DNA of 64,000 bases from an uncultured Gemmatimonadaceae bacterium (GCA_963781585.1 CAWAGQ010000004.1:320001-384000); one strand, 5' to 3'; positions 782-63,612 are shown, counted from the stretch's first letter. Translations and numbers: made by a program. Notes: generated by a model from the letters alone, not told the origin.

Positions 782-1869
782 CAGCGCAGTCCCGACACGC
801 GCCAGCTGCGAGGCGGCCGACAGAAGCGAAGCAGCGGTCGATCGCCGGAGTGAGTAACAGGCGCTGGCGAACGACGGTGCGCGAGCTGTCGATCGCGTTG
901 GTGGGCGCGATGGCGATTCCTCAGGTCGTACAGGGGCAACGCAAGTACACCGACGCGAGCGGACATCTGCGGGTTGCGCTGGCCCGGCAACCCTTCCTGC
1001 CGAACGGGACGTCGCCGGGACCGGCCACGATGGCCAGTGGCGGAATCCAGGATACCCTGGCGCGGCTCGGGGCCGTGGTGCGGGTGGCCGAGGCGGCGCT
1101 CACACCGGAGGAGAACACCGAGTACGGAGGCTGGAAGCGCCTCGGCATGGCGCTCGGCCACTTTGCCCGGATCGTCGCGCAGAACGAGCGCGACGGCTAC
1201 TTCACGGTCGGGCTGCTGGCGACCTGCCCATCGATGCCGGGTCTGGTGGCCGGACTGCAGCATTCCGGTCCCACCCCGGAGGCGATCCGGATCGGCATGC
1301 TCTGGCTCGACGCGCATCCGGATTTCAACACACCGGAGACGACGCGCAGCGGCTCGTTAGGCGGTATGCCGGTCGCGGTAGCCACCGGCCGGGCGCTGCA
1401 GCGGATGCGCATGGATGCCGGTCTCGATCCACCTCTGTCAGACCGCCACATCGTCATGGGCGGCGTACGCCTCATCGATCCGCTGGAGCGGGAGTTGCTC
1501 GACGACTCGTTCATCGAACAGCTGTCGGTCGACGATCTGCGTACCGGTTCGCCCGCGGTCTTCGCCCAGCTCGATCGCTTGAGTCGTCTCACCGACAAGA
1601 TCTACGTCCACATCGACATGGACGTCCTCGATCCGCGCGAGGTCTCGGGTCACCCCAACAAGGTTCCTGACGGCCCATCGAGCGAGCAGCTGGCGCGGCT
1701 CTTCGAGCAGATCTTCAGCCGATATCCGAAGACCGTTGCGATCGGCTTCGCCACGATTCCCGGCACCGATCCGGGCGGCCTGTCGATCGCGGCGGTGAAC
1801 CGCATGATCGCCGGCGCGGTGCGCGGCGTGATGGAGCGGGAGCGTCGCGACGGGGGCAAGAAGCCGTAG
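778..1869 (+). CDS. Arginase/ureohydrolase-fold protein, possibly exported
   Basis: Metal motifs WLDAHPDFNT and HIDMDVLDP. ATGA overlap with the osmC stop. Hydrophobic N-terminal segment; the true start may be downstream. Confidence 0.8.
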   Translation: MTAQSRHAPAARRPTEAKQRSIAGVSNRRWRTTVRELSIALVGAMAIPQVVQGQRKYTDASGHLRVALARQPFLPNGTSPGPATMASGGIQDTLARLGAVVRVAEAALTPEENTEYGGWKRLGMALGHFARIVAQNERDGYFTVGLLATCPSMPGLVAGLQHSGPTPEAIRIGMLWLDAHPDFNTPETTRSGSLGGMPVAVATGRALQRMRMDAGLDPPLSDRHIVMGGVRLIDPLERELLDDSFIEQLSVDDLRTGSPAVFAQLDRLSRLTDKIYVHIDMDVLDPREVSGHPNKVPDGPSSEQLARLFEQIFSRYPKTVAIGFATIPGTDPGGLSIAAVNRMIAGAVRGVMERERRDGGKKP

Positions 1870-1945
1870 GCCCTACGTCGGGTGAGTCGCCACCGCGGGC
1901 GACGCGCCGGGCGCCGAAGTACCGGGTCGCGGCTTACGCCGCGCG

Positions 1946-3388
1946 CTACAACTGCTTCACTTCGGTGATCAGGTCTGTCAGGCTCTTCTTCGCATCGCCG
2001 AACAGCATCGAGGTCTTGCGGTCGTAGAACAGGGCGTTGTCGATCCCCGCAAACCCGGCTGCCATCGACCGTTTCATGACGATGCAGCTCTTGGCGCGGT
2101 CGGCGTCGAGAATCGGCATGCCGTAGATCGGGCTGGACGGGTCGGTGCGCGCCGCGGGATTCACCACGTCGTTGGCGCCGATGACGAGGACGCAGTCGGT
2201 CGACGGGAAGGCTCCGTTCACTTCGTCCATGTCGTACAGCCTGTCGTAGGGCACGTTCGCCTCGGCCAGCAGCACGTTCATGTGGCCGGGCATGCGCCCG
2301 GCGACCGGGTGAATGGCGTACTTCACGTCCACCCCGCGCTTCTGGAGCAGTTCCGCCAGTTCCTGCACCTGATGCTGGGACTGCGCCACCGCCATTCCGT
2401 ACCCCGGCACGATGATCACGGAATTCGCGTACGCCAGTTGCACCGCGGCGTCGGGGGCGGAGATCGGCTTGACCGACAGTCCGGTGGCGCTCTGCACGAC
2501 CGCTGGTGCCGTCTGCCCGCCGAACGCGCCGAACAGGATGTTCGTGAACGGCCGGTTCATCGCCTTGCTCATCAGTACCGAGAGGATGAAGCCGGACGAC
2601 CCGTCGAGCGCGCCGGACAGAATGAGCACGTTGTTGCCGATCGCGAAGCCGGTGGCCGCCGCCGCCAGCCCGGCGTAGGAGTTGAGCAGCGCGATGACCA
2701 CTGGCATGTCCGCGCCGCCGATCGGAATCACCATCAGCACGCCCAGCAGGAAGGCGACCCCGATCATGGTGAAGAAGAGCACGGTGTTGGACGGGTCGTA
2801 GATCAGATACCCGTAGCACCCGAGCGCCACCACGAACAGCAACGCGTTGGAGGCGTTCTGCCCGGGATAGGTGACCGCCCGGCCGGTGATGAACTCCTGC
2901 AGCTTGCCGAACGCCATGAACGCGCCGGTGACCGTCAGGGCCCCCAGCAGCACCTCGAACCCGACCGCCGCCATCCGGGCATGGGAGAGCGCCACGCCGC
3001 CCGGATCGTGCCAGGCGTTCCAGAACTCGGCTACTCCCACCAGCGTCGACGCCAGGGCGCCGAACATGAGCGCGAACGCGATCCGTTGCGGCATGGCCGT
3101 CATCGGCACCCACATGCCTAACGGGTATCCGATGAGACCGCCCAGGATGAGCCCGATCGCGATCCACCGATAGGTGATGACGTCGTGCTGCAGCAGGGTG
3201 CCGATGATCGCGAACAGCATCCCGACGGCGGCCAGCTGCATGCCGCGGCGCGCCTGGTCGGGCCGCGAGAGGCTCCGAATGCCCAGAATGAAGAGGGCCG
3301 ACGCGACCAGGTAGATGCCCTGAATCGCCAGCTCGCGACGAGGGTCGGCGATCGCCGACTGCGCGGCCACCAGCGCGGCCGCGCTCAC
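1946..3388 (-). CDS. pntB: NAD(P) transhydrogenase beta subunit, copy 2
   Basis: GGADMPVV, VPGYGMAVAQ, HPVAGRMPGHMNVLLAEA, GANDVVNP. GTGA overlap with the upstream pntA2 stop. Confidence 0.95.
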   Translation of the reverse strand: MSAAALVAAQSAIADPRRELAIQGIYLVASALFILGIRSLSRPDQARRGMQLAAVGMLFAIIGTLLQHDVITYRWIAIGLILGGLIGYPLGMWVPMTAMPQRIAFALMFGALASTLVGVAEFWNAWHDPGGVALSHARMAAVGFEVLLGALTVTGAFMAFGKLQEFITGRAVTYPGQNASNALLFVVALGCYGYLIYDPSNTVLFFTMIGVAFLLGVLMVIPIGGADMPVVIALLNSYAGLAAAATGFAIGNNVLILSGALDGSSGFILSVLMSKAMNRPFTNILFGAFGGQTAPAVVQSATGLSVKPISAPDAAVQLAYANSVIIVPGYGMAVAQSQHQVQELAELLQKRGVDVKYAIHPVAGRMPGHMNVLLAEANVPYDRLYDMDEVNGAFPSTDCVLVIGANDVVNPAARTDPSSPIYGMPILDADRAKSCIVMKRSMAAGFAGIDNALFYDRKTSMLFGDAKKSLTDLITEVKQL

Positions 3389-3696: not shown

Positions 3697-3763
3697 GCGA
3701 GGGAGCGGGTCGGAGGTCGCAGGGCAGGGGACGGAGCGTGGGGACGCGCGTTCGGGGGCACGA

Positions 3764-5577: not shown

Positions 5578-6675
5578 TCAGACACGAACCGCGCCAGCGT
5601 GCACGACACACATTGGCCCGGCGATCTCATCCTCGAGGCTGAGGGTGATGGTCCCGTCCTTGAGGAGGTGCTGCAGCAGCGTCAGGCAGTTCTTGCTGAA
5701 CATCAGGCTGGCGTGGAAGGGCACGGAGCTGGGCAGATTGGCCGCTCCCACGATCGTCACGCCGTTCGACTCCACGACCTCGTCCGCCCGGGTGAGCTCG
5801 CAGTTGCCCCCCTGCTCGGCGGCCAGGTCCACGATCACCGAGCCCGGACGCATGGAGGCGACCATGCCGGCGGTGATGAGGCGCGGTGCCGCCCGTCCCG
5901 GGATCTGCGCGGTGGTGATGACGAGGTCCTGGTCCTTGATGTGTTTCCCGATCGCGTCGAGCGTGCGCTGGTGCTCGTCGTCGCTCTGCGCGCGGGCGTA
6001 TCCCCCCGCCGCTTCGGCGTCGGCCTGCGGTTCCGGACCCACGAACGTGGCGCCTAACGACATCACCTGTTCCCGGGCGGCGGCACGGATATCGAATCCG
6101 GAGACCACCGCGCCGAGCCGGCGGGCGGTCGCGATCGCCATCAAACCGGCCACTCCGGCCCCGATGACGAATGTCTTGGCCGGAGGGATGTTGCCGGCGG
6201 CCGTGGTGAGCATGGGGAGCAGCTTCGCCGCGTGCTCGGCCGCCAGCAGCACCGCCTTGTAGCCGGCGATGGTCGCCTGGGACGACAGAATGTCCATCGA
6301 CTGCGCCCGGGTGATGCGTGGGACGCGCTCGAGCGCGAGCGCGGAGACGTTGCCCTGCGCGAGTACCTGGAGGAGATCCGCGCTCGTGGCGGCGGGTAGC
6401 AGCGAGATGAGGAGGGCCCCCGACCGGATCCGCCGGGCCTCCGCCAGCGACGGCTTCTGCACCTTGACCACGACGTCGGCGCTGAACGCGTCTCCGGGAT
6501 CACCGAGTCCGGCGCCGGCTTCCGCGTAGGCCGCGTCGGGGAAGTACGCCGGCACGCCGGCCCCCCGCTCCACGACCACCTCCACGCCCGCCTTCACGAG
6601 GCGTCCTGCGCTCTCCGGCGCGACGGCCACGCGCCGTTCTCCTGCGGCCGTTTCCTTCGGGACTCCGATGCGCAT
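5578..6675 (-). CDS. pntA1: NAD(P) transhydrogenase alpha subunit part 1 (soluble NAD-binding dI)
   Basis: MRIGVPKE..GERRVA, RITRAQSMDILSSQ, GAGVAGL and GGNCELT. Confidence 0.95.
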   Translation of the reverse strand: MRIGVPKETAAGERRVAVAPESAGRLVKAGVEVVVERGAGVPAYFPDAAYAEAGAGLGDPGDAFSADVVVKVQKPSLAEARRIRSGALLISLLPAATSADLLQVLAQGNVSALALERVPRITRAQSMDILSSQATIAGYKAVLLAAEHAAKLLPMLTTAAGNIPPAKTFVIGAGVAGLMAIATARRLGAVVSGFDIRAAAREQVMSLGATFVGPEPQADAEAAGGYARAQSDDEHQRTLDAIGKHIKDQDLVITTAQIPGRAAPRLITAGMVASMRPGSVIVDLAAEQGGNCELTRADEVVESNGVTIVGAANLPSSVPFHASLMFSKNCLTLLQHLLKDGTITLSLEDEIAGPMCVVHAGAVRV

Positions 6676-6776: not shown

Positions 6777-9731
6777 TCATGGCCGGTAGGCGGCCGTCAC
6801 CCACAGCCTCGCCTTGTGGCGATACGGTGCGTCCAGCGAATACGAGGCCCCCGCACTCGCGCGGACCTGTGGCAGCCGGGCGAAACCTAACGCTTCCGAT
6901 GCAAACGAGCGTTCCACGCCGACCACGCGCTTCCAGTGCTCGAGCGCATCGCCGGCCGCCAGCCAGGTGGCAAACGGCTCGACCGGCCACATTCCCGGAA
7001 TCGACAGGCGGTAGAGACCCATCCGCCTGCCCCCGAGGAAACCGATGGGCACCCCGGGCACCGGCAGCTGCTGCGATACGAATGCCCGGTCGAAATACGG
7101 CACGTCGGCGCCGCCCACCACGAACTGCTCGAACGCGCGCCCGCCGCGTGAATCGCCCCCCGTGGCGGCGTCCACCGCACCCACGCTCGCTTCCGCGCGA
7201 AGCGCCACGGCCTGTGTGCCGGCCACCGCGCCAACGGCCATGATGGTGCGATTCCACCGCTCGGCCCCAGTCGTGCCTCCGCTGCCCTGAAGCGAGACAC
7301 CCACGGCGAGCACCCGCGTCCCGACCGACAGGTTGGCCTGTGCCCGTGCTTCGCCGAATCCGAGCACGCGCCGATTGTCCTGCGCCGGCACGGAGCCTAC
7401 CGCCCCCAGGCTGCCCCCGGCGCGCAACGAGTAGCTGATCGCGCTGAAGTCGCGGTCGAAGCGCGCGACGATCCCCGATCCCACGTACTCGCCGTCGAAC
7501 GGCAACCGTGGCGTGGCCTCGCCGGCCGGTGCGCGCCGGTTCGTGTACCACGCGGCACCTTCGAACACGACGGGCAGCCGCCGAAAGGCGGCGCTCAGCG
7601 ATCCACCACGCCAGGTGCCCGCTTCCCCGTATCCGCCCTGTGCCACGACGCTCAACCTGGCGATTGGGTCGATGTTGGCGACCATGAGCGTGGCCAGCGC
7701 GCCATCGGTGGTCAGCTGTTCGCCCGGCAGGATCCGCCACCGTCGCGGACCCAACCCATAGGCGTGTGGAGGAGAAATGGTCGTCGCGGTGAATGCCGGC
7801 CTCGTCGTATCTGGTCGCGGCGGAGCAGCCGGCGAGAGTTCGGGGTCGAGGGCGACCACGTCCCGCGCGCTGGTCGCGGAGTCGATGGGGAGCCGTCGCA
7901 AGTCGTATCCCTTCGCGTGCAGCGCCAGGAAATACACCAGATTGTCGGCGCGACTCACGTCAGGCGCCAACGCGGCACCGGTCACCCGTGTGAGCGTCGT
8001 GGCCCGGGCGTTGTCGATCTGCAGTCGTTCGAGGTTCGCGATGCCGCCGCGTTCGCTCACTTCCACCACGGCTTCGCCACTGGCGGTCCAGCTTGGCGCG
8101 TATCGCGACGCGCCATCTCCCGGGTCGACCAGGTGCACATCGCGCGTGACCGGGTCGACAATGGCGATGACCCAGCGCCCATTGATGTGATAGCTCGCGG
8201 CGACGCGGCGTCCGTCGGGCGACCACCGCGGCCGATACCAGGCATCGTTCACGTGCGCGGCAACCAGCGTGTGCCACGCGCCCGTCGCGAGATCGACCGT
8301 AACGAGACCACAGCGTCCGTCGGCGCAGCGTACTCCCGCAGCCGACTTGCCGTCGGGAGACGGATCGGCGTGATGGATGCCGGCGCCGTACGTGACGCGC
8401 CGCAGCGCGCCCGTCCGGGAGTTCCAGAGAAAGAGGTCGGGTCGCGAGGCGCCGTCGCCGATCGGCTCCTCGCGATTCACCAGGAGATGCACGTTGTCCG
8501 GGAGCCAACGCGGAAGGTCGTGCGACCGTCCGGCAAATGGCAGCAGTGTGGCGATGGCCCGCCGCGGCGGAGGAAAGGAGTCGGTCGCCGGCACGTCGAG
8601 TGAGTCCAGACGGAGCAGGCGGGCCCGTCGCGCGGCCGCCAACGAGTCGGCGTTGTCGTTCCCCGTGCGCCAGACGACGAGTCGCGACGGCGCGGTGGAA
8701 GAACGAAGAACCACCGCCATCAGCTTTCCGTCGGGCGAGACGGCGGGTTCTCCTGTTGCCCAGTACAACCTCTGTACCAGCTCTCCCTCGACCAGCCCGG
8801 CCTCCTTCAAGCGCCGGTCGATCTCGAGCGATTTGGCGATCACTTCGACGGAGAACCTGCCGTACATGTCGTCAGGCGGCGCCCCGAACACTCCCGCGAA
8901 CGCGGACCCGAAGCTCCGCCGCTGGCGCGCACTCATCCGCCGCCACAGGTAGACGAGGCTGGAGTCCCCCTTGGCCGACCGCAGCCAATCGAGAAATGCG
9001 GAACCCACGAGGTACCGCATGCTTCCGCCCAGAAACGGACTGCTCAGGTCGAGTTGGGAATAGATCGGCAGTTTTCCCTCCAGTGCCCACTGGCGAAGTA
9101 CGGCAGCGCGCCCAACGGAGCTGGGCCGGCCGTCGCCGGTGAGGTCGCCTTCGATGAGCGTGGCGTACCCTTCGATGACCCACTCCGGTGCCTTGCGAGC
9201 CACCGGTCCGATCTGTTCGGGCAGGAAGCGCCACAGCAGGCGCTCGGCGGGATTGCGCGATGGGAAGGTGAGGTGCGCGATGTGCGCGTACTCGTGAACG
9301 GCGAGCGCTTCTCCCCATTCCCGGTACGCACCAAACGAAGGCGACGGTGCCGGGGGCGTGGGCCAGAGGAACATCAATGGTCCTTCGAGAAACGGCAGCG
9401 CAAACCCGTTCGAGACGCTCGATGGATCCTCCACGAGCACCGTCACGCGCGTCCCGGGCACGTTCCCCACCGCGGCGTTCACGCTGGACGCGACGGACTC
9501 CATGCGCTGTGCCACGTCGACCGCCCAGTCGCGCATGGAGGACGGGAAGTGAAATGTGAAATGCGCTGTCTGAACCGTCTGCCACGGATGCGACGGCCGC
9601 GTGAGATACTGCGGCAGTGCTCTCGCCGAAATGGTGGTGAGGAAGACCGCCGACGCCACGGCGCGCCGGTACCAGCGCGCGGCCTCGCGCTCCCGCCCGC
9701 GGACGTTCAGGCGCTCACCGCCGTCAGGCAC
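6777..9731 (-). CDS. Large exported protein: HEXXH metallopeptidase-like domain, PD40/TolB-like propeller and probable C-terminal beta-barrel
   Basis: HEYAH...PEWVIEGYAT; repeats PAVSPDGK, PSPDGK, PRWSPDGR, PSWTASG; alternating beta-strands at the C-terminus. Start uncertain (about 9660-9779). Confidence 0.7.
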   Translation of the reverse strand: MPDGGERLNVRGREREAARWYRRAVASAVFLTTISARALPQYLTRPSHPWQTVQTAHFTFHFPSSMRDWAVDVAQRMESVASSVNAAVGNVPGTRVTVLVEDPSSVSNGFALPFLEGPLMFLWPTPPAPSPSFGAYREWGEALAVHEYAHIAHLTFPSRNPAERLLWRFLPEQIGPVARKAPEWVIEGYATLIEGDLTGDGRPSSVGRAAVLRQWALEGKLPIYSQLDLSSPFLGGSMRYLVGSAFLDWLRSAKGDSSLVYLWRRMSARQRRSFGSAFAGVFGAPPDDMYGRFSVEVIAKSLEIDRRLKEAGLVEGELVQRLYWATGEPAVSPDGKLMAVVLRSSTAPSRLVVWRTGNDNADSLAAARRARLLRLDSLDVPATDSFPPPRRAIATLLPFAGRSHDLPRWLPDNVHLLVNREEPIGDGASRPDLFLWNSRTGALRRVTYGAGIHHADPSPDGKSAAGVRCADGRCGLVTVDLATGAWHTLVAAHVNDAWYRPRWSPDGRRVAASYHINGRWVIAIVDPVTRDVHLVDPGDGASRYAPSWTASGEAVVEVSERGGIANLERLQIDNARATTLTRVTGAALAPDVSRADNLVYFLALHAKGYDLRRLPIDSATSARDVVALDPELSPAAPPRPDTTRPAFTATTISPPHAYGLGPRRWRILPGEQLTTDGALATLMVANIDPIARLSVVAQGGYGEAGTWRGGSLSAAFRRLPVVFEGAAWYTNRRAPAGEATPRLPFDGEYVGSGIVARFDRDFSAISYSLRAGGSLGAVGSVPAQDNRRVLGFGEARAQANLSVGTRVLAVGVSLQGSGGTTGAERWNRTIMAVGAVAGTQAVALRAEASVGAVDAATGGDSRGGRAFEQFVVGGADVPYFDRAFVSQQLPVPGVPIGFLGGRRMGLYRLSIPGMWPVEPFATWLAAGDALEHWKRVVGVERSFASEALGFARLPQVRASAGASYSLDAPYRHKARLWVTAAYRP

Positions 9732-12016: not shown

Positions 12017-13995
<1,979 letters not shown>

Positions 13996-14943: not shown

Positions 14944-16955
14944 CCGCGGGGCCCTCCGATGCGCGGGCCGTCGGGGCGCGCGAGCCGCGTCGGGCGGCGG
15001 AGCGCGGCGCGGGCGTCATGGTGTGCGCCTTTCTCCTGCTGGTGTACTTCGTGTCGCTGGCGCCCGACGTGACACTGTGGGATGCGGGCGAGTTCAACGC
15101 CGCAATCGCCACGCTGGGCATTCCTCATCCGCCGGGGACGCCCCTCTATGTACTCGTAGCCCACGTGTGGGCGCGCCTGTTGCCGCTGTTATCGCAGGTG
15201 GTGGCGGTGAACGCGCTCTCGGCCGTTGCCACGGCTGCGGCGTGTGGACTGCTGGCGCGGCGGATCACAGCCTGGACGGGGAGCGCCGTGTCGGGAATCG
15301 CCGCAGGAGTGACCGCGGGAATCATGTTTTCTGTATGGCAGAACGCCACGGAAACCGAGGTGTACGCGCTCTCCTTGTTGCTGGCGATATCGCTGCTGAT
15401 CGTCGGCGATCGTGCCGGCCGGACGGGATCGGTGCGGCACGCGGTGCTGCTGGTGTACCTGATGGCGCTGTCGATTCCACTGCAGATCAGCGCGCTGGTG
15501 TCGGCGCCCGCGGCCATTCTGCTCGCCAGCACCACCGACGCGGGGCGGATCTCCCGCGAGCGCCTTGTCTCGTTAGGTGCCGCCTTCGCGATGGTGGTCG
15601 GCCTCGGGGTGGGAGCCGCCTGGCTGGTGGTGGCCGGGGCCCTCGTGCTGTTCGGCCTGTCCGGCTACCGCGTGGTACGACGGCAGGCGAGCAACGTGGC
15701 GGCCTGGCGGCTGATAGGGGCCGTGGCGGTGGGAGCCAGCGCCGTGGTGTTCATGCTGATCCGTGCGGCGCACGACCCGGGAGTCAACCAGGGCGATCCG
15801 GCCAGGTGGCGCGCCCTGGCCGATGTCGTCGCCCGACGCCAGTACGACGTCCCTCCGCTCTGGCCGCGCCGCGCACCCATCTGGCTGCAGCTCGGCAATC
15901 TCGTGCAGTACAGCGACTGGCAGGTAGCGGCCGGGCTCGACGCGTCGCCCGGACCATCGTGGCTCCGCACCCCCTGGACCATTGCGTTCGGCCTCCTGGC
16001 CGCAGTCGGCGCCCGGTGGCACTGGAACCGCGAACGCCGGAGTGCCACCGCCATGGCGCTGCTGTTCGCCTGCGCCTCGTTAGGTGTGGTGGGCGTACTC
16101 AATCTGCGCGCCGGACCGAGCATCGGCATCGGCGTCCTGCCGGCCGACGCCGTCCACGAGCCGCGCGAGCGGGACTATTTCTTCGCGTTGGCCTTCGTCG
16201 TGGCGGGTGCGTGGGCGGGAATGGGTGGCGTGGCGGTGGCCGGTCGTCTCGGGAGACGACGGCGGTGGCTCGGTCTGGCAACGGCGGTGCCGCTCGCCCT
16301 CAACTGGCAGGCCACCGACCGCCGCCGACAGCCCGATGCCTCGCTCCCCGACGCCCTGGGCGTCTCGCTCCTGTCGTCCTCGCCGCCGCGTGCGGTACTG
16401 CTGCTCGCCGGCGACAACGACTCGTACGCGACGTGGTTTGAGCAGCAGGTGCACGATCTGCGCAAGGACGTCACGCCGATAACGCTTCCCCTGCTCGGCG
16501 CCGACTGGTACCGCGCCGAACTGGCGCGCCGGGATTCACTCCTGCCAGCGCGCGCGGTGTCGGAGTGGGTCGGTACCGAAGCCACCCTTCGGTTCATTCG
16601 CGAGCAAGCAGCGCGCCTCGGCCGACCGGTTGTCGCGGCCGTTTCGATTCCTCGACAGACCCGCGAGGCGATCGCACCGGACTGGGTGCTGAGCGGAATG
16701 GTGTTTGTGGAGCGCGGGGCGGACCGGGGCGCTCCGACGGTCATCGTGTCCGGCGCGCCTGTCGATCCACGCGCGGCCCGGACCGCTGCACGAGACATCG
16801 CGGCCCGGGTGCCTCAGCTGTCACGTCCGGCTCGGGACCCTGCGGGCACGTACGTCCAGCAGCTGCTGAGCTGCCCGTCGCGCGCGGTGCGCGAAATCGA
16901 CTCCATCTCTACCGGTCGCGACGGTTTACTTGATTCGTGGTGTAACCTCAAGTAG
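14940..16955 (+). CDS. DUF2723 (TMEM260-like, GT-C fold) polytopic membrane protein
   Basis: WDAGEF, LGIPHPPGTPLY, ETEVYAL, PRERDYFF and GDND, plus many TM segments. Confidence 0.8.
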   Translation: MTAGPSDARAVGAREPRRAAERGAGVMVCAFLLLVYFVSLAPDVTLWDAGEFNAAIATLGIPHPPGTPLYVLVAHVWARLLPLLSQVVAVNALSAVATAAACGLLARRITAWTGSAVSGIAAGVTAGIMFSVWQNATETEVYALSLLLAISLLIVGDRAGRTGSVRHAVLLVYLMALSIPLQISALVSAPAAILLASTTDAGRISRERLVSLGAAFAMVVGLGVGAAWLVVAGALVLFGLSGYRVVRRQASNVAAWRLIGAVAVGASAVVFMLIRAAHDPGVNQGDPARWRALADVVARRQYDVPPLWPRRAPIWLQLGNLVQYSDWQVAAGLDASPGPSWLRTPWTIAFGLLAAVGARWHWNRERRSATAMALLFACASLGVVGVLNLRAGPSIGIGVLPADAVHEPRERDYFFALAFVVAGAWAGMGGVAVAGRLGRRRRWLGLATAVPLALNWQATDRRRQPDASLPDALGVSLLSSSPPRAVLLLAGDNDSYATWFEQQVHDLRKDVTPITLPLLGADWYRAELARRDSLLPARAVSEWVGTEATLRFIREQAARLGRPVVAAVSIPRQTREAIAPDWVLSGMVFVERGADRGAPTVIVSGAPVDPRAARTAARDIAARVPQLSRPARDPAGTYVQQLLSCPSRAVREIDSISTGRDGLLDSWCNLK

Positions 16956-18295: not shown

Positions 18296-19147
18296 ATGAC
18301 GATGCCCGGATTGGATCAGGTCACGCAGAAGCTTGAACAGGTGGATGCGGCGGCCGACGTCGTGCGACGTCGCTCGGGCGTCGTGCCGCAGGCTGCCGTG
18401 ATCATCGGGACTGGGCTGGGTGCGCTGGCAACGCGCATCGAATCCGCGACCGTGATCCCGTACGCGGACATCCCGGGCTTCCCACGTCCCACCGTGGAAA
18501 CGCACGCCGGCCGCCTGCTGTGCGGTGAACTGTCCGGACGCCAGGTGGTGGCGATGGAAGGGCGCTTCCACCGGTACGAGGGATACTCTCTGCAGCAGGT
18601 GACCTTCCCGGTCCGGGTGCTGCGCGCGTTAGGCGCACGGGTCTTGGTGGTCTCGAATGCGGGCGGCGGGATGCACCCCCTGTGGGAGGCCGGCGACCTG
18701 ATGCTGCTTGCCGATCACATCAATCTGCTGGGAGACAACCCGCTGGTGGGACCGAACGATGACCGCCTGGGTCCGCGGTTCCCGGACATGTCCGAGCCAT
18801 ACGATCCGGGACTGCGGGCGCTGGCCAGGGAGGTGGCCGCGGCGCAGGGCATCCACCTGCGCGAAGGTGTGTACGTGGCGGTGAGCGGCCCGAACCTGGA
18901 GACGCGCGCCGAATACCGGATGCTGCGCGCGCTGGGCGCGGATGTGGTCGGCATGTCCACGGTTCCCGAGGTGATCGTCGCCGTCCACGGGGGGATGCGC
19001 GTACTGGGCCTCTCGATCATCACCGATCTGTGCCTGCCCGACGCGCTGGCTCCGGCCAGCGTGGCGGACATCATCGCCACCGCGGCGCGGGCCGAGCCGC
19101 ACCTGACCGCCGTGATCACCGGCGTGCTGCGGCGTCTCGACACATGA
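18296..19147 (+). CDS. punA: Purine nucleoside phosphorylase (trimeric type)
   Basis: IIGTGLG, HAGRL, GRFHRYEGY, GPNLETRAE and VGMSTVPE. Start uncertain (18284-18302). Confidence 0.9.
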   Translation: MTMPGLDQVTQKLEQVDAAADVVRRRSGVVPQAAVIIGTGLGALATRIESATVIPYADIPGFPRPTVETHAGRLLCGELSGRQVVAMEGRFHRYEGYSLQQVTFPVRVLRALGARVLVVSNAGGGMHPLWEAGDLMLLADHINLLGDNPLVGPNDDRLGPRFPDMSEPYDPGLRALAREVAAAQGIHLREGVYVAVSGPNLETRAEYRMLRALGADVVGMSTVPEVIVAVHGGMRVLGLSIITDLCLPDALAPASVADIIATAARAEPHLTAVITGVLRRLDT

Positions 19148-41233: not shown

Positions 41234-42192
41234 TCCTCGCCGGTGCGGTCGCCCTCGCGGCCGCGCCGCCCGGAGCCGCCCAGCTCCCGTTAGGCATGCA
41301 GCAGGTGACGGCCGGCCGGTTTACCGTCGCGGCCGAGCCGGGAGACATGCAGCTGGCGCGGGCGCTGCTCGGACGGGCCACCGCCAGGGATACGTTCCCG
41401 TGGCTGCCGCGCCCGCACGAGCCGGTCCTGATCATCGTCGCCCCCGACCGCCGCACCTTCCGGGCACTGGTCGGGCCGGCGGCTCCCGAATACGGCGCCG
41501 CCATCGCCATCCCGGCCGAGCGGCGCATCGTCATGCAGGGCCACAACGCGGCGTCGGATGCCGGTGATCCGCTCGAGGTGCTCCGTCACGAGCTCGCACA
41601 CCTGGCGCTCCACGAGCGGCTGGACAACATCCCGCCTCGATGGTTCGACGAGGGGTACGCGTCGGTGGCGGCCGGTGAGTGGGGTCGCGACGAGGTACTG
41701 GCCACGAATGTTGCGCTTGCCTTGCGCGGCATGCCCTCGCTCGATGCGCTCGACGCACAGTTCGCGGGAGGCGCCGGACAGGCGACCGCCGCCTATGCGC
41801 TGGCACACCGTGCGGTCGTGGAACTCGCGGCGCTCGATCCCGAGCGTGGCCTGTCGCTGTTCTTCGACTATTGGCGCCAATCGGGAGACTTCGACGCCGC
41901 CATTCGTCAGGCATTCGGCATTACCGAATCGGACTTCGTGCAACGCTGGCGCGACCACACGCGCCGTCGCTATGGCGGCCTGGCGCTGTTCGCGGATCTC
42001 ACGATCGGTGCGCTCGTGCTGCTCTTCGTCATCACACCGTTGTACCTCGTGCGGCGCGCCCGAGACCGCGCGCGTCTGGAACGCATGGCGGACACGGAAG
42101 CGCGGGTGGAGCAGCAGGCCCGCGATACTGCCATCGAGGAGCTTCTGCGGAGCGTTACCCCGCCGTCCAGCGACCGTCGCCCCGACACGTGA
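41170..42192 (+). CDS. Membrane-anchored peptidase MA-like (HEXXH) protein
   Basis: Signal-like N-terminus, HELAH...PRWFDEGYA and a C-terminal TM helix. Start uncertain. Confidence 0.72.
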   Translation: MGEALRRDAAGSRSRRRAHALILAGAVALAAAPPGAAQLPLGMQQVTAGRFTVAAEPGDMQLARALLGRATARDTFPWLPRPHEPVLIIVAPDRRTFRALVGPAAPEYGAAIAIPAERRIVMQGHNAASDAGDPLEVLRHELAHLALHERLDNIPPRWFDEGYASVAAGEWGRDEVLATNVALALRGMPSLDALDAQFAGGAGQATAAYALAHRAVVELAALDPERGLSLFFDYWRQSGDFDAAIRQAFGITESDFVQRWRDHTRRRYGGLALFADLTIGALVLLFVITPLYLVRRARDRARLERMADTEARVEQQARDTAIEELLRSVTPPSSDRRPDT

Positions 42193-47924: not shown

Positions 47925-49441
47925 ACCGGGAGATCTCGTCCGCCGCCATCGTGCGGGCGCTGGAGGAGGCGGGAGAGCTCGTTGGCGTGCGCGGGGACCT
48001 GCCGGCGTCCTTCACGGCACTCTCCGACGACAGCCGGACCGCAACGCCGGGATCGCTCTTTGTCGCCGTGCGCGGTCAGGCGCGCGACGGACACGACTAT
48101 CTGGACGCCGCGCGGCGGGGCGGAGCGGTGGCGGCGGTTGTAGAGGACGCGTCGCGCACCGAACTGCCCACGGTCGCAATCCGGGACAGCCGGCGGGCGG
48201 CGGCGGTGGTCGCGGCCGCGGCCTACGACTGGCCGGCGCGACAACTCGTGGCAGTCGGCGTCACGGGCACGAGCGGCAAGACGACCACCGTCACGATGCT
48301 CCGCCACCTGCTGGATGAACCCGATGCCGCCAGCGCGTCGATCGGAACGTTAGGCGTCCTGACGGGCCGCGTGGGCCGACCCCTGCCGGGCGGCAGCGGG
48401 CTCACCACCCCCGGTCCGGTGGAACTGCAGCGCGTGCTCCGGATGCTGGTGGATGCCGGCGTCCGGCGTGTGGCAATCGAGGTTTCGTCGCACAGTCTCG
48501 ATCAGCGTCGCGTCGAGGGCGTGGCGTTCGCGGTCGCGGTGTTCACGAACCTTTCGCACGAGCATCTGGACTATCACGGCGACATGGCGTCGTACCTGAA
48601 CACCAAAGCGAGGCTCCTTCAACTGCTCGCGCCTGACGGTACGGCGGTGATCAACGCGGACGATCGGGCGTGGGATGCGCTCCCGCCGACCCGGCGGCGG
48701 CTGCGGTTCGGGGTGGGCACGACCGGCGGCGTCGATGTCACGGCGCGGGACGTCCGCTTCACGGCCGCCGGGAGCACGTGGCGGCTGGTGGCTGGCGCGG
48801 AATCCGCGGCGGTGCAGCTCCCCCTGCTGGGCGATTTCAACGTGATGAACGCGCTGGCGGCCGCGACGGCGGCGCGCGCTCTCGGACTCGCGGTGAGCGA
48901 CATCGCCCTCAGGTTGTCGTCGCTGTCGCAGGTGCCGGGACGGCTCGAACGGCTGCTGGATCGGCCGGCGGTGCTCCGCGACTACGCGCACAAGCCCGAC
49001 GCGCTGCGGGCGGTGTTGCGGGCGGTGCGGCCGTTCGTGCGGGGCCGCCTGATCGTGCTGTTCGGATGCGGCGGCGACCGCGACCGGAGCAAGCGTCCGG
49101 TGATGGGGGCGATCGCCGAACAGGAGGCGGATGTGGTGATTCTGACCAGCGACAATCCGCGCACCGAGGATCCGGAGCGGATTCTCGACGAGATCGAGGT
49201 GGGAATGTCCCGGCCGCACGAACGCATCGAGGACCGTCGGACGGCGATCGCCCGGGCGGTGCAGATCGCACGCGCCGATGACGTGGTGCTGCTGGCGGGG
49301 AAGGGGCACGAGACGTACCAGATCCGGGGGACGGAGGCGCTGCCGTTCGACGAGCGGGAGGTGGTGGGGGCGGTGGTGGCCGCGGCAGCAGACCCGGGCG
49401 GCGTGGTGCAGCGAATTGGGCGCGGAGGGGCGGCGGCGTGA
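47921..49441 (+). CDS. murE: MurE ligase
   Basis: GTSGKTT, EVSSH, GCGGDRD, DNPR (meso-DAP-type motif) and AGKGHE. Confidence 0.95.
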   Translation: MNREISSAAIVRALEEAGELVGVRGDLPASFTALSDDSRTATPGSLFVAVRGQARDGHDYLDAARRGGAVAAVVEDASRTELPTVAIRDSRRAAAVVAAAAYDWPARQLVAVGVTGTSGKTTTVTMLRHLLDEPDAASASIGTLGVLTGRVGRPLPGGSGLTTPGPVELQRVLRMLVDAGVRRVAIEVSSHSLDQRRVEGVAFAVAVFTNLSHEHLDYHGDMASYLNTKARLLQLLAPDGTAVINADDRAWDALPPTRRRLRFGVGTTGGVDVTARDVRFTAAGSTWRLVAGAESAAVQLPLLGDFNVMNALAAATAARALGLAVSDIALRLSSLSQVPGRLERLLDRPAVLRDYAHKPDALRAVLRAVRPFVRGRLIVLFGCGGDRDRSKRPVMGAIAEQEADVVILTSDNPRTEDPERILDEIEVGMSRPHERIEDRRTAIARAVQIARADDVVLLAGKGHETYQIRGTEALPFDEREVVGAVVAAAADPGGVVQRIGRGGAAA

Positions 49442-54509: not shown

Positions 54510-55612
54510 TGCTGGTCGTCTTCACGGGCGGCGGAACGGGCGGCCACCTCTATCCGGCGCTGGCGATCGCGCGCGCCCTGCGCGCGGTGCGGCCGGGTGT
54601 CGACGTGATGTTCGTGGGAGCGCGGCGCGGCATCGAGCAGCACATCCTGCCGGCCACCGAGTTTCCACACGTCCTGCTCGATCTTCACCCGTATTACCGC
54701 AGCGCCCCGTGGCGCAACTGGCGCACGCTCCGCGGACTGGCGGGATCGTGGCGCACGTTAGGCACGCTGTTCGCCGAACGACCCCCGGCGCTGGTGGTGG
54801 GGACAGGGGGGTATGCCTCATCGGCGACGCTGGCGTGGTGCGCCGCCCACCGCCGACCGTACGTGCTGCAGGAACAGAACAGTTTTCCCGGGCGAACCAT
54901 CCGGTTGTTCAGTCGCGGGGCCCGCGAGATCTACCTGGGCTTTCCCGAGTGCGTCCCGCGGCTGCCGGCGACCGCGCGAGCCAGGGCGGTTGCAACCGGA
55001 AACCCGGTACAGCCACCGCCCGATCCGCGACCGCCCGGCGGCGACGCCCGCCGACACTGGGGGTTTCCCGGGACGAGCGGGCGCGTGCTGCTGGTGTTCG
55101 GCGGAAGTCAGGGGTCGGCGGCGATCAATGCGCGCGTGGACGCGTGGCTGGCGCGGGGTCTCCCCGCGGATGTGTACGTGATCTGGGCGACCGGCATCAG
55201 TCATTTTGCGCAGTACGCCCAACGGGCGTCTCCGCAGGTCGTCGTGCGCGAGTACCTGTCGCCGATTGCCGAGGCGTACGCCGCGTGCGACCTGGCGCTG
55301 ACGCGCGCCGGTGCCATGACCACCGCGGAACTGTGCGCCTGGGCGATTCCCGCGCTGCTGATTCCCCTTCCGACGGCGGCCGCCGACCATCAGACGGCGA
55401 ACGCGCGCTCGCTGGCAGCGGCCGGCGCGGCGCGGTGGCTGGCCGAACGCGACGCGACGCCCGAGCGTCTCGGGGACGAGTTGCAGGCGCTGCTGGGCGA
55501 CCCCGCGGCCCTGGAGTCGCTCGCCGCGGGCGCGCGTGCGCGTGCGCGCCCCGATGCGGCGCATCAGATCGCGACGCGGATCGCCGCGCTGCTCGACCAG
55601 GTGGCCGCCTGA
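54509..55612 (+). CDS. murG: MurG glycosyltransferase
   Basis: GGGTGGH, GGY, EQN, GGSQG, RAGAMT and HQ..NA. Confidence 0.96.
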   Translation: MLVVFTGGGTGGHLYPALAIARALRAVRPGVDVMFVGARRGIEQHILPATEFPHVLLDLHPYYRSAPWRNWRTLRGLAGSWRTLGTLFAERPPALVVGTGGYASSATLAWCAAHRRPYVLQEQNSFPGRTIRLFSRGAREIYLGFPECVPRLPATARARAVATGNPVQPPPDPRPPGGDARRHWGFPGTSGRVLLVFGGSQGSAAINARVDAWLARGLPADVYVIWATGISHFAQYAQRASPQVVVREYLSPIAEAYAACDLALTRAGAMTTAELCAWAIPALLIPLPTAAADHQTANARSLAAAGAARWLAERDATPERLGDELQALLGDPAALESLAAGARARARPDAAHQIATRIAALLDQVAA

Positions 55613-59301: not shown

Positions 59302-60513
59302 ATGATCTTCGAGTTCGAAGAGTCCCCGTCTCAGAACGCCCGGATGAAGGTGACGGGCGTGGGTGGAGGCGGCGGCAACGCCGTCAACCGCATGATCGAT
59401 GAACACCTCGAGGGTGTGGAGTTCATCTCGATCAACACCGATGCCCAGGCATTGCTCGCGTCCAAGTCGGACGTGAAGATTCAGATCGGCAAGAAACTGA
59501 CGCGGGGGCTGGGGGCCGGGGCGCGACCCGAGATCGGCCGGCAGGCGATCGAGGAGAATCGCGACGAGGTGTCCCGGGCCCTGGCTGGGGCGGATCTCGT
59601 CTTCGTGACCTGCGGGATGGGTGGCGGGACCGGGACCGGTGCGGCGCCGACGATTGCCCAGCTGGCGAAGGAGGTGGGCGCGCTGACCGTCGGAATTGTG
59701 ACGAAGCCCTTCCTTTTCGAGGGGCGGAAGCGGATGCGGCAGGCTGATCAGGGGATTATGGAGCTGCGGCAACATGTGGACACCATGATCGTCGTACCAA
59801 ATGAGCGGTTGCTGGCGGTTGTGGGAAAGGGTATTCCATTCCAGGATGCGTTGAAGAAAGCGGATGAAGTCCTGTTGCATGCCACCCAGGGCATCTCGAC
59901 CCTCATTTCGAAGACCGGTCTGGTGAACGTCGATTTCGCGGACGTGCGGACAGTGATGCAGGACGGAGGGTCGGCCCTGATGGGAACGGGGATCGGCCGC
60001 GGGGAGAACCGTGCCATGGAGGCGGCGCAGCAGGCGATTTCGAGTCCGCTGCTCGACAACATCTCGGTGGCCGGCTCCACCGGCGTGCTCCTCAACATCA
60101 CCGGCGGGCAGGATCTCACGTTAGGCGAGGTGACGCAGATCAGCGAAATCGTGCACGATGCAGTGGGTGACGATGCCGAGATCATTTTCGGAGCGGTGAA
60201 CGAACCGGCGATGCAGGGCGAGGTGCGGGTGACCGTGATCGCGACCGGATTCGACCGGGAAATCGAGGGAACGCTTGGCCGGGCCGCCCACGGGCGGGTC
60301 ACGGCGACGATCGGCATGGCGGCACAGACGCGCAATGTCATTCCGATCACCCAGCGCGCGCCGCAGCGCGCACCGGCCGTGCCGCGCGTGGCCGGTGCGA
60401 CGACGGCCGAAGGCGGGTCGCGTCGTGTGGTGCCGCCCGCCCAGCCCGCCCGCGCCGAGGCCGAGCTCACGGACATGGACATCCCCACCTTCATTCGGAG
60501 ACAGATGGATTGA
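59302..60513 (+). CDS. ftsZ: FtsZ
   Basis: [22 protein letters not shown] and the C-terminal DIPTFIR peptide. Confidence 0.98.
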
Positions 60514-61757: not shown

Positions 61758-61815
61758 TCGATCGCGTCGCGCGCGCGACCGCGGGGTGCTCCGGATCGCC
61801 CGCTAGATTGCGCGC

Positions 61816-63612
61816 ATGGTGATCTGGCTCTGCGCGCTGGCGGCGGGAGCAGCGGCCGCGCTCTGGATGTACGGCGGGCGGCCGTCACGACGGGCCGCCG
61901 GGGTGGCGCTGGCGCTGCGTGCGATCGCGGTGACCGGCGCGATTGCGCTGCTGCTGAATGCCGTGGTCGGTGCACGTCGCGCGGCGCGGCCGCTGGTGGC
62001 GCTCGACGTGTCGGCGAGTTGGCTTCGCGGCCACGACACCTCGGCCTTCGCGTCGGCGGTAGACCGCGCCCGAGGCGACGGAAACGGCGGCCTGTTGGTC
62101 TTCGGCGATTCGACGCGGACGTTGTCGGGCGCGGCGGCGGCCGGCGATGTGGCGTCGCGCGTGCGCCCCGCGGTCGAGCGCGCGCTGGCCGGGGGTCGCC
62201 CCCTGGAGATCGTGACCGATGGCGAGATCGACGACCCCGACGCGCTGGCGGCGCTCCCCGGGGGATCGCGGGTCATTATCCTGGGGACCCGCCCGTCGCG
62301 CGACGTCGCGGTCAGCGAGGTCCGCATCCCGCGCGCGGCCGTGGCCGGCGATACCGTCGAAGCGGACATCGGTCTGGTCGCCGCAAACGCCGGGGCTCCG
62401 GCTGGGCAGCTCACGATCACGCTGGGCGACCGCCGGGTGGAGACCATCGTGGTGGACTCGTTAGGTCCGTTCGGCGAACGACTCGTGCACGCGCGGATCG
62501 CCGTCCCCGCCGTCAGCGGCGCCCTGCTGCTCCGCGCGGCGGTCGAGGCACGCGGCGACGAGGAGCCACGCAATGACACCCTGGCGGTGACGCTCGACAT
62601 CTCGCCGGGCGCGGCCGCGGTCCTGGTCGCGACGTCACCCGACTACGACGTCCGCGAGCTGGCGGCGGTACTGCGCGGGACGGTGTCGCTTCCCACGCGC
62701 GGATTCTACCGGGTCGCGCCCGAGGTGTGGCGGGAGGATGGGTCGCTTGCGCCAGCAACGATCGATGCCGTACGCCGCGCGGCGCGCGATGCCCCTCTGC
62801 TGATTGTCGATGGGGACACCGCCCTGTTCGGCGACCCGCGCGCCTTCGCCCGGGGCTCCCTGCTGCTGATCGCGCCGCCCACGTCGGCGTCGGGCGAATG
62901 GTTCGCCACCGGTACCCCCGTCTCGCCAATGGCCGCAACCCTTGGCGGGTCGCCGTGGGACAGCCTGCCCCCGCTGGACGTGGCGGCACAGATCCCCGAG
63001 GGCGATTTCGAGATCCTGGAAACGAGGAGGGCACGCCGGCTGGACCGGCGCGTGGCGGCGGTGGGCTGGGAGCATCCCCGACGCGTGGTGCTCGTGGCGG
63101 CGTCGGGATTCTGGCGCTGGCGATTCCACGGGGGGGTGGGAACCGGCGTGCACGCGGCCTTCTGGGGAAGCGTGATCGACTGGCTTTCGGCGGAGCGGAG
63201 CGACGTGCGGGCTGCCGTTCCGGTTGATGGAGCGGTGCGGGCCGGACAGCAGGTGCGGTGGCGACGTGGATCGGCTGCCGACACCGTGGTCACGGTGACA
63301 CTTGCGAGGCGCTCCCCGCCGGCCACCGACACGCTGACGCTCCGGTTCCCCGGCGGAACGCTTTTCGCCGAGACGCCGCCGCTCCAGGTTGGCACGTACG
63401 ACCTGACGATGCGCGGTGGACGCGCGATGCTGGTGGTGAATCCATCGGCGGAGTATCTGCCGCGGCGTCCAAGCGTTCGGGCCGGCGAAGTTGGCGCTGC
63501 GGTGGCCTTGTCCGACGCGCCGCGGCTGCGCTCGTTCGGCTGGATCTTCGCGCTCGTGATCGCGGCGCTCTGCGCGGAGTGGATCATGAGGCGACGGCTG
63601 GGCCTTCGCTGA
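61816..63612 (+). CDS. Hypothetical membrane protein (vWA-like DxSxS, Ig-like region, C-terminal TM)
   Basis: N-terminal TMs, LDVSAS, VTDGE, and an EW..RRR.GL C-terminus. Confidence 0.65.
   Translation: MVIWLCALAAGAAAALWMYGGRPSRRAAGVALALRAIAVTGAIALLLNAVVGARRAARPLVALDVSASWLRGHDTSAFASAVDRARGDGNGGLLVFGDSTRTLSGAAAAGDVASRVRPAVERALAGGRPLEIVTDGEIDDPDALAALPGGSRVIILGTRPSRDVAVSEVRIPRAAVAGDTVEADIGLVAANAGAPAGQLTITLGDRRVETIVVDSLGPFGERLVHARIAVPAVSGALLLRAAVEARGDEEPRNDTLAVTLDISPGAAAVLVATSPDYDVRELAAVLRGTVSLPTRGFYRVAPEVWREDGSLAPATIDAVRRAARDAPLLIVDGDTALFGDPRAFARGSLLLIAPPTSASGEWFATGTPVSPMAATLGGSPWDSLPPLDVAAQIPEGDFEILETRRARRLDRRVAAVGWEHPRRVVLVAASGFWRWRFHGGVGTGVHAAFWGSVIDWLSAERSDVRAAVPVDGAVRAGQQVRWRRGSAADTVVTVTLARRSPPATDTLTLRFPGGTLFAETPPLQVGTYDLTMRGGRAMLVVNPSAEYLPRRPSVRAGEVGAAVALSDAPRLRSFGWIFALVIAALCAEWIMRRRLGLR

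Follow-up and report, generated by a model that had tools for sequence, protein, structure and literature searches.

A hyper-abundant DNA word with an integron-type core in some Gemmatimonadaceae

The DNA analysed here is a stretch of 64,000 nucleotides from an uncultured Gemmatimonadaceae bacterium (GCA_963781585.1, CAWAGQ010000004.1:320001-384000), hereafter called the window, and the subject is an octamer, CGTTAGGY, that is scattered through it, mainly in the form CGTTAGGC. According to NCBIfam profiles, with 49 open reading frames (ORFs) scanned, the window is an ordinary bacterial chromosome segment. The genes are ordered pntAB, tilS, hpt, ftsH, folP and ileS, then a che/TPR cluster, and then the division and cell wall (dcw) cluster from rsmH to ftsZ. 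The sole RNA gene found by Rfam and ARAGORN is a tRNA-Val (TAC) at 42532-42605 on the plus strand. The GC content is 0.684, and the plus strand is G-rich nearly end to end. We describe CGTTAGGC as a hyper-abundant word of double-stranded DNA that is clade-specific and found in some Gemmatimonadaceae; the signal resides at the DNA level and is blind to orientation.

A pattern search of both strands found exactly 25 copies of CGTTAGGY in the window (plus strand 21, minus strand 4), or 1 copy per 2.56 kb with 84% on one strand. The final base was C in 20 copies and T in 5. A preliminary description of the same DNA, based on a manual scan, had listed 25 copies; all of them are present at the coordinates given there and none had been missed. 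The copies are listed below, where L001, L004, L007, L008 and L019 denote loci of relatives that are compared further on.

1355..1362, plus strand: CGTTAGGC, sense, TCG-TTA-GGC (S-L-G), in an arginase-like ORF
3116..3123, minus strand: CGTTAGGC, sense, CCG-TTA-GGC (P-L-G), in a minus-strand pntB-like gene
6052..6059, minus strand: CGTTAGGC, sense, TCG-TTA-GGC (S-L-G), in minus-strand pntA
6885..6892, minus strand: CGTTAGGT, sense, GCG-TTA-GGT (A-L-G), in a minus-strand TolB-like gene
13407..13414, plus strand: CGTTAGGT, sense, TCG-TTA-GGT (S-L-G), in ftsH
15571..15578, plus strand: CGTTAGGT, sense, TCG-TTA-GGT, in a 683-aa ORF of no family
16078..16085, plus strand: CGTTAGGT, sense, TCG-TTA-GGT, in the 683-aa ORF that also holds copy 15571
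18627..18634, plus strand: CGTTAGGC, sense, GCG-TTA-GGC, in the purine-nucleoside phosphorylase gene
19493..19500, plus strand: CGTTAGGC, sense, GCG-TTA-GGC, in ileS (N-terminal ORF)
26053..26060, plus strand: CGTTAGGC, sense, TCG-TTA-GGC, in cheA
28848..28855, plus strand: CGTTAGGC, sense, TCG-TTA-GGC, in the gene of an 899-aa TPR protein
30582..30589, plus strand: CGTTAGGC, sense, TCG-TTA-GGC, in the gene of the 899-aa TPR protein that also holds copy 28848
35974..35981, plus strand: CGTTAGGC, sense, TCG-TTA-GGC, in a DnaA-like double-AAA+ ORF
40741..40748, minus strand: CGTTAGGC, antisense, where the plus-strand TPR gene reads CCT-AAC (P-N)
41288..41295, plus strand: CGTTAGGC, sense, CCG-TTA-GGC, in an HExxH-like ORF; word at the matching site of L019
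45851..45858, plus strand: CGTTAGGC, CGT-TAG, the stop of the ORF at the ftsL position; GTT-AGG if ftsI begins at the upstream TTG
48348..48355, plus strand: CGTTAGGC, sense, ACG-TTA-GGC, in murE, conserved G-T-L-G-V; word also in L008
49517..49524, plus strand: CGTTAGGC, sense, CCG-TTA-GGC, in murF; word also in L019
49724..49731, plus strand: CGTTAGGC, sense, GCG-TTA-GGC, in murF; word also in L001
51651..51658, plus strand: CGTTAGGC, sense, GCG-TTA-GGC, in mraY, conserved L-A-L-G-G; word also in L007
54139..54146, plus strand: CGTTAGGC, sense, CCG-TTA-GGC, in ftsW
54756..54763, plus strand: CGTTAGGC, sense, ACG-TTA-GGC, in murG; word at the aligned site of L008 and L004
56939..56946, plus strand: CGTTAGGC, sense, ACG-TTA-GGC, in murC
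60119..60126, plus strand: CGTTAGGC, sense, ACG-TTA-GGC, in ftsZ, conserved L-T-L-G-E
62459..62466, plus strand: CGTTAGGT, sense, TCG-TTA-GGT, in a 598-aa ORF of no family

In 100 dinucleotide shuffles of the window the mean number of CGTTAGGY was 1.18 (standard deviation (SD) 1.04, maximum 4), against the 25 observed. Synonymous-codon shuffles of a list of 48 genes built from NCBIfam matches, in which the proteins and the codon totals were preserved, gave a mean of 0.54 copies (SD 0.71) and a maximum of 4 in 1000 runs. The strong excess claimed in the preliminary description is thereby upheld, also under a codon-aware null model, whereas the expectation of about 3 copies offered there was a slight over-estimate. 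For CGTTAGGC alone, an order-2 Markov model predicted 0.39 copies in the window where 20 were observed, an excess unmatched among all 8-mers, and the word is roughly forty-fold above chance in this genome. The excess is confined to the word itself: 25 of the 26 occurrences of TTAGG and all 25 of GTTAGG in the window lie inside it, and its one-mismatch neighbours are present in 0-3 copies each, except for words that are common anyway. An extended motif was rejected, as the window copies had no conserved flanking base beyond a purine on the 3′ side (22/25) and a weak T on the 5′ side (11/25). Serine was not significantly preferred before Leu-Gly at the window copies (p = 0.076). The closest pair of copies on opposite strands is 547 bp apart, and no terminator-like inverted pairs of the word were found in the window.

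Within the 48 genes, 23 of the 25 copies are read in the sense frame as NCG-TTA-GGY. TTA accounts for only 31 of 2200 Leu codons in the window genes and 23 of the 31 are inside the word. At sites where Ser, Ala, Pro or Thr precedes Leu-Gly ([SAPT]-Leu-Gly), 23 of 59 Leu codons are TTA, compared to 8 of 2141 elsewhere (Fisher p = 4e-32). The tRNA-Val overlaps the 5′ end of a TPR ORF first called with 621 aa; that start is therefore wrong, and so are two of the eight TTA codons outside the word, which fall in the mis-called 5′ extension. About six remain, in agreement with the preliminary count. The copies at 3116, 6052 and 6885 on the minus strand are sense copies within minus-strand genes. The two copies outside the sense frame had also been described, one as antisense (40741) and the other as the stop codon of ftsL (45851). 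The ORF stopped by the latter copy has 115 codons, lies between rsmH and ftsI and is called ftsL from its position only. In L004, a Gemmatirosa sp. metagenome-assembled genome (MAG), the word at 3423-3430 is located just upstream of ftsI and may again provide the CGT-TAG stop of ftsL; the stop position in L019 reads CGA-TAG, without the word.

Concentration of a rare Leu codon in one context raises the possibility of a signal at the level of translation, with TTA as a regulatory rare codon or as a ribosome pause before Gly, and both the 23 of 31 TTA codons in the word and the single frame of 23 of the 25 copies speak for it. The great scarcity of TTA in a genome of high GC resembles the situation of the bldA-type TTA regulation of Streptomyces. 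Unlike in that system, TTA is here bound up with one set context of 8 bases, the genes concerned (ftsH, ileS, mur, fts and the like) are housekeeping genes and not regulators, and the word also occurs antisense and between genes, as detailed below. TTA-GGY is moreover found solely after NCG, the words TGTTAGGC, AGTTAGGC and GGTTAGGC each having 0 copies in the window. A systematic base-calling or polishing artefact of the window assembly, named in the preliminary description as a way in which the signal could fail, would be in line with an apparent indel in ileS near 20,500, which shows the assembly to be imperfect. It is contradicted by the enrichment of the word in independent assemblies of short-read style (L001, L002, L004, L007 and L008) and in a finished isolate genome. 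Wholesale miscalling of CTG to TTA or of TTG to TTA was likewise rejected: the plus strand retains 10 copies of the ordinary form CGCTGGGC, and the independent assemblies overrule such miscalling. NCG-TTG-GGY is rare in the window, but TTG before Gly is rare generally. The translation-level and the artefact readings are both effectively excluded.

The relatives comprised 80 loci (L001-L080) obtained from a genome-contig search with a MraY query, and the window's own genome was not among them. The closest MraY match was 81% identical, and the nearest loci were Gemmatimonadaceae MAGs. Seven loci were enriched for the word, with 46 copies in 111.6 kb: L007 (6 plus and 7 minus in 12 kb), L008 (10 plus and 3 minus in 14 kb), L004 (7 plus and 1 minus in 15 kb), L002 (3 plus and 3 minus), and L001, L014 and L019 with 2 copies each. 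A further 12 loci of the same Gemmatimonadaceae clade contained 0 copies in 150.8 kb. The other 61 loci contained 10 copies in 987 kb, which is the background level. Carriers have between 1 copy per 10 kb and 1 per kb, and sister lineages have none. The carrier assemblies are a mixture of short- and long-read MAGs; the contig names of L001, L002, L004, L007 and L008 are in the style of a short-read assembler.

A MraY tree was made from 40 rows, that is 39 of the 80 loci and the window, with 41 loci excluded as short or outside the phylum and one in-frame stop in each of eight rows set to X. The window forms a supported clade with L001, L019, L007 and L014 (100/97), in which every member is a carrier. 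The word is also found in L004, L002 and L008, but not in their tree neighbours L006 and L003. In total the word is present in 8 of the 20 rows of the Gemmatimonadaceae clade, window included, and the sister order-level clade has isolated single copies at most. The word is patchy within the family and absent as an enriched trait from the sister order-level clade.

Sites were compared by aligning the peptide around ten window sites to L001-L019 and reading the codons; site 62459 was unmatched, which left nine. At these sites the relatives mostly have CTC, CTG, CTT or TTG at a conserved x-Leu-Gly, and at the murE site 48348 twelve other relatives have CTN and one has Ile. The number of aligned sites that carry the word in common with the window is 2 for L019, 2 for L008 and 1 each for L001, L007 and L004. 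L019, the nearest relative, has just 2 copies in 21 kb, both at window sites, and ordinary codons at the other 7 aligned sites; compared to an occupancy of about 38%, this sharing (2 of 9 window sites, and both of its own) is within chance, the numbers being small. Copies have thus arisen time and again through synonymous substitution, mostly of two bases, and are not inherited as fixed sites. In L007 the 6 plus and 7 minus copies lie inside plus-strand dcw genes, and by crude gene calls based on GC content at third codon positions the relatives use all four stop-free frames in both orientations. The target can therefore be neither a peptide nor an mRNA, and the preliminary view of a DNA-level signal, comparable to known uptake or repeat words and not imposed by proteins, is borne out.

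The finished isolate genome is that of the cultured strain Gemmatirosa kalamazoonensis KBS708, of which plasmid 1 (NZ_CP007129; 1,106,233 bases) was analysed whole. It contains 792 CGTTAGGY (412 plus, 380 minus), 778 of them ending in C, or 1 per 1.4-1.5 kb, and CGTTAGGC is by far its top 8-mer with 53-fold enrichment. Outside an integron array that is described below, 691 copies were found where 11.7 were expected (about 59-fold). The first 50 kb of plasmid 1 contained 30 copies against 1.3 expected, and 50 kb of plasmid 2 contained 20 against 0.76. Outside the array, variants of the first base were also enriched (TGTTAGGC 34-fold, AGTTAGGC 12-fold and GGTTAGGC 2.8-fold) and variants of position 7 were not (CGTTAGAC, 5 copies, 1.0x; CGTTAGCC, 1 copy, 0.1x). 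Only the first base tolerates change, which defines a strict core GTTAGGC whose preferred context is a C before and a purine after. The strand split of this 7-mer is 406:395.

Gene calls for plasmid 1 were crude and covered 84.5% of the sequence. Among the 691 copies, 265 were read as NCG-TTA-GGC and 40 as GTT-AGG, and 192 were antisense (24 as CTA-ACG and 168 as CCT-AAC). A further 194 (28%) were outside called genes, in 15.5% of the sequence (p = 6e-17). The 192 antisense and 194 intergenic copies are the ones that count against a translation-level signal. Occupancy of the possible sites was 265/1066 for NCG-TTA-GGC, 168/571 for CCT-AAC, 40/2562 for GTT-AGG and 24/1643 for CTA-ACG. The frames thus fall in two classes about 17-fold apart, at 25-29% for NCG-TTA-GGC and antisense CCT-AAC and at 1.5% for GTT-AGG and antisense CTA-ACG. 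Both high-occupancy frames are in the same codon phase, which puts bases 2, 5 and 8 of the word at third positions. In the proteins of plasmid 1, Pro-Asn occurs 571 times where 349 were expected, and 168 of the Pro-Asn are coded by the word, while Asn-Pro occurs 402 times; Leu-Gly occurs 2629 times and Gly-Leu 2037 times. Where the word is densest, in Gemmatirosa, the proteins have been bent to it.

Two transition neighbours of the word behave differently on plasmid 1 outside the array: CGTTGGGC is 3.0-fold enriched (130 versus 43) and CGCTAGGC is 10-fold depleted. The excess of the one and the deficit of the other may point to the way in which copies form or are lost. Direct pairs of the word within 60 bp number 23 on plasmid 1, far above the 3 inverted pairs. 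Short tandem arrays with the word in a 12- or 15-base unit occur at about 1,005,343 (L101:5343-5430) and 735,995 (L095:35995-36060) of the same replicon.

Over 668 spacings on plasmid 1, the coefficient of variation (CV) was 0.82 (Kolmogorov-Smirnov test against an exponential, p = 2e-5), and the dispersion index of the word in windows of 10 kb was 0.79. None of 145 control 8-mers of like abundance had a CV that low (mean 1.01, SD 0.056). Taken one orientation at a time, the CVs were 0.94 and 1.02, above a relabelling null of 0.906; the evenness belongs to the pooled copies and is blind to orientation. The CV of the 24 spacings in the 64-kb window was 0.70. Even spacing that ignores orientation fits recognition of double-stranded fragments, at about one copy per DNA stretch, and argues against signals of the Chi or FtsK-orienting polar sequence (KOPS) type, which act in one orientation. 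Under-dispersion also argues against a neutral repair bias, which is expected to space copies randomly.

These data bear on a Chi-like or other nuclease-control tag that would mark self DNA for a RecBCD/AddAB-type helicase-nuclease or for a defence nuclease, and for which no strand skew would be needed if breaks were two-ended. Length and density (1 per 1.4-2.5 kb) are Chi-like, the word is on every replicon sampled, even spacing would fit a need per fragment, and the window copies stand 21:4 toward the G-rich strand. Like Chi and KOPS or architecture imparting sequences (AIMS), it is the most over-represented octamer of the genome and lies in the window largely on one strand. Chi, however, acts in one orientation, and here the evenness is found in the pooled copies and not in either orientation singly. 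The leading-strand share on plasmid 1 was 367/679, about 54:46 (p = 3e-32 against 0.75), as summed from a 50-kb table with 800-900 kb left out and with a guess at the replichore borders based on a weak GC skew, and L007 is split 6:7. The minus-strand copies of the window track the strand of the gene and not the replichore, as the preliminary description had already argued from the flip in orientation. Known Chi words are built of common codons and are just few-fold enriched, an order of magnitude below the word described here. No RecBCD, AddAB or FtsK gene lies in the sequences analysed. A nuclease tag is, in our judgement, very improbable.

A closer parallel in abundance is the highly iterated palindrome HIP1 (GCGATCGC) of cyanobacteria, an octamer of unknown function that is 15- to 300-fold over-represented inside and between ORFs (PMC5861425). 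The word might likewise be kept by selection through a nucleoid or chromosome-structure protein, or by a biased repair or methylation process, as in very short patch (VSP) repair, that converts near-matches. Both octamers are hyper-abundant in and between genes, and the 53-59-fold enrichment on plasmid 1 is within the HIP1 range. The on/off patchiness among close relatives is what would be expected of a horizontally moving methyltransferase or repair module, and the near-match CGTTGGGC is enriched. Against this, CGTTAGGC is no palindrome, its reverse complement being GCCTAACG, the under-dispersion seen here contrasts with the random spacing expected of a neutral repair bias, and the other transition neighbour, CGCTAGGC, is depleted (0.1x). 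HIP1 sites are conserved between genomes (PMC5861425), whereas sites of the word turn over and, in the small numbers compared, appear to be shared no more than occupancy predicts. Maintenance of the HIP1 kind is in sum rather improbable.

The GTTAGGC core fits the integron core site GTTRRRY exactly. For an arbitrary 7-mer, taken together with its complement, a match to GTTRRRY has a probability of 0.002. In integrons, GTTRRRY is the universal core and RYYYAAC the inverse core, and they form the consensus of the R′ and R″ boxes; the double-stranded R box of attI1 is bound by IntI1, and attG sites in the genome also serve IntI for insertion (PMC12901181). A complete sedentary integron is located on plasmid 1 at 810,281-857,786 (L097:10281 to L098:7786). 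It has 57 same-strand attC sites between 810 and 856 kb, 0.34-3.3 kb apart, that fold as R″-L″/L′-R′ hairpins. One further attC-like element is found at 881.8 kb. The integron integrase is full-length (TIGR02249, 423 bits versus a cut-off of 265) and lies at the right end of the array on the minus strand, facing the attC sites; no integrase was present among 23 ORFs scanned on the left of the array. The R′ boxes of the 57 attC are CGTTAGGC (n = 21), CGTTAGAC (n = 13), CGTTAGCC (n = 11) and others (n = 12), and the R″ boxes are matching complements, with GCCTAACG in 18 of 57, so that the commonest boxes are the word and its complement. The Gemmatirosa integron is already in print (IntegronFinder 2.0, PMC9024848), with no mention of the word in the available part of that paper. 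Unlike the integron itself, the identity of its R box with the hyper-abundant word of the genome was not found in print. Together with the clade restriction and the even spacing, this identity goes beyond the preliminary description. The interiors of the cassettes contained 18 copies where 25.6 were expected at plasmid density; being just mildly depleted, they were rejected as an example of foreign DNA without the word.

The coincidence suggests that a tyrosine recombinase of the integron-integrase type could read the word, in which case its thousands of occurrences would act as half-sites for IntI, comparable to attG as places of landing or binding, in a genome that has adapted to a protein whose DNA specificity is fixed in evolution. 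The match to the R box, the binding of double-stranded R boxes and the use of attG reported for IntI (PMC12901181), the presence of integrase and array on plasmid 1, and the low chance of a core-site match are all in its favour. No mechanism was found that multiplies isolated sites, since insertion followed by excision should restore the target, and landing pads in essential genes should be harmful. CGTTAGAC and CGTTAGCC make up 24 of the 57 R′ boxes and yet are unenriched outside the array, which makes the genomic word stricter than attC, as it rejects the position-7 variants. In the window, no integron integrase is present among the 49 ORFs scanned, and the copies are isolated, without attC architecture: no L box, hairpin partner or conserved flank was seen at any of them. 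They arise through point substitution in conserved codons and not through cassette insertion. Other integron-rich bacteria are not known to have such a word, which counts against the recombinase as well, and we regard this alternative as unlikely.

The comparison that we favour is with the DNA uptake sequence (DUS) of Neisseriaceae and the uptake signal sequence (USS) of Pasteurellaceae. We propose tentatively that the word is an uptake- or transfer-type self tag of this kind, kept by molecular drive, a reading by analogy that is plausible but falls short of probable. From the observed enrichment, DNA level, indifference to orientation, even spacing, turnover and effect on proteins we infer a biased uptake or transfer as well as the identity of the reader, which would be a protein of the DNA-import or DNA-transfer machinery that prefers fragments with the word. 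Homologous recombination of word-bearing fragments would then spread new copies through the population. Copies would settle where the cost is least, at third positions of x-Leu-Gly (NCG-TTA-GGC) or, on the other strand, of Pro-Asn (CCT-AAC). The range of density among carriers and its fall to zero in sister lineages fit a drive that can be switched on, strengthened or lost.

Like DUS and USS, the word is short and non-palindromic, occurs about once per 1-2.5 kb, is alike on both strands in Gemmatirosa, occupies the cheapest frames in genes, distorts the proteome where dense, is evenly spaced and recurs in some related species. USS are evenly spaced too and co-evolve with the proteome. Inside genes, the frame use of DUS and USS is biased to cheap frames, and about half of the copies and more than 90% of the inverted pairs are in terminators (bioRxiv 10.1101/2025.10.24.684340). 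The word differs in belonging to a soil phylum, the Gemmatimonadota, in having just 7-8 bases, in its patchiness within the family and in its coincidence with the integron core site. Where DUS and USS are shared across a clade, the word is carried by 7 loci, the window and the isolate and is lacking from 12 loci of the clade.

Several observations weigh against the uptake-type tag. The terminator feature of DUS and USS is not shared by the word, as only 3 inverted pairs within 60 bp were found among 801 copies on plasmid 1. None of the 25 window copies is intergenic (p = 0.16). The patchy spread within one family is unlike DUS and USS, which are known for filling whole families. No minor pilin, type IV pilus, ComEA/ComEC, DprA or transfer genes were present among the window ORFs by NCBIfam, and among the papers listed in a literature search none reported transformation of a member of the Gemmatimonadaceae. 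Drive leaves the identity with the integron core site, with a chance of about 0.2%, unexplained. Finally, the window copies are nearly all sense: occupancy is 23/61 for [SAPT]LG, 1/56 for Val-Arg, 1/6 for antisense Pro-Asn and 0/42 for antisense Leu-Thr (p = 1e-6 for the first against the last). An orientation-blind drive does not predict this bias unless CTA is costlier than TTA. Outside the word, TTA (8) and CTA (10) are equally scarce in the window, and the rarity of a codon therefore does not by itself account for the frame classes. The simplest reading of the sense-only bias is a weaker drive that fills just the cheapest frame, which does not fully explain it. The dipeptide excess of Gemmatirosa (Pro-Asn, Leu-Gly) was not seen in the window.

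An integron core site may even have been turned into a genome-wide self tag in some Gemmatimonadaceae, so that one word would serve both the joining of cassettes and the choice of DNA for import, transfer or protection. This combination is speculative and rather improbable. Were it true, self-DNA recognition would be coupled to cassette traffic. Uptake-type sequences would for the first time extend beyond the Proteobacteria, or else a genome would for the first time be seen to have adapted thousands of sites to a tyrosine recombinase. So dense a supply of R boxes might also have a part in the origin of new cassettes and attC sites.

Very few lineages are known to have hyper-abundant genomic words (DUS, USS and HIP1), and all three words have given insight into DNA exchange or chromosome biology. 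The preliminary author knew of no description of this one, and none was found in our literature searches, in which the sequence as a motif matched primers only among the papers listed. Nothing was found that joins Gemmatimonad bacteria with an uptake sequence, nor anything on Gemmatimonas among the octamer and Chi papers listed, and a term search of the available main text of PMC4670013 returned nothing. The host phylum is abundant in soil and little studied. The word overrides codon usage and, in Gemmatirosa, also shifts dipeptide frequencies. Its on/off switching between close relatives makes a comparative identification of the reader feasible, and its presence in the cultured G. kalamazoonensis KBS708 makes it experimentally accessible. 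An uptake or transfer tag would imply sequence-biased gene flow in soil bacteria, and the unexplained identity with the core site could link two fields. In practice, the word offers binning a sharp taxonomic marker and calls for caution in codon-based predictions of gene expression.

Some further features of the window and of the relatives were observed. The ileS gene is split in overlapping ORFs at 19030-20580 and 20390-22570 by an apparent one-base indel at 20,480-20,530, where the conserved IleS sequence after '...WFVRTT' runs on in another frame; the break is either an assembly error or a true frameshift in an essential gene. Two tandem ORFs at 1946-5152 on the minus strand each give a full-profile match to pntB, at 446 and 454 bits. 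They lie downstream of pntAA and a short pntAB-like ORF, which amounts to an unusual duplicated transhydrogenase beta subunit. A 596-aa ORF at 34278-36068 on the plus strand has two DnaA/Hda-like AAA+ modules without the DNA-binding end of DnaA and is not the replication initiator; it is part of a cluster of che, TPR and MshE-N-type cyclic di-GMP-domain genes at 25-44 kb.

Among relatives without the word, dialects of it were sought in the top-ranking 8-mers of all loci in L001-L050 with a length of 8 kb or more (38 loci), and the arrays of L006, L033 and L035 were inspected. The candidates were rejected, as the strong 8-mers of L006, L021, L031, L033 and L035 are local tandem arrays and not dispersed words. 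In word-less Gemmatimonadales loci these are tandem arrays of the heptamer (A/T)TCCGCA, in facing orientation and intergenic in the dcw region (L033:8539-8624 and 13664-13757; L035:8540-8632; L021 and L031 by k-mer counts), and are possibly regulator binding arrays. In L006, from a Gemmatimonas sp. MAG, a tandem hexamer array (GGCACA)n occupies positions 1-103 at the contig end.

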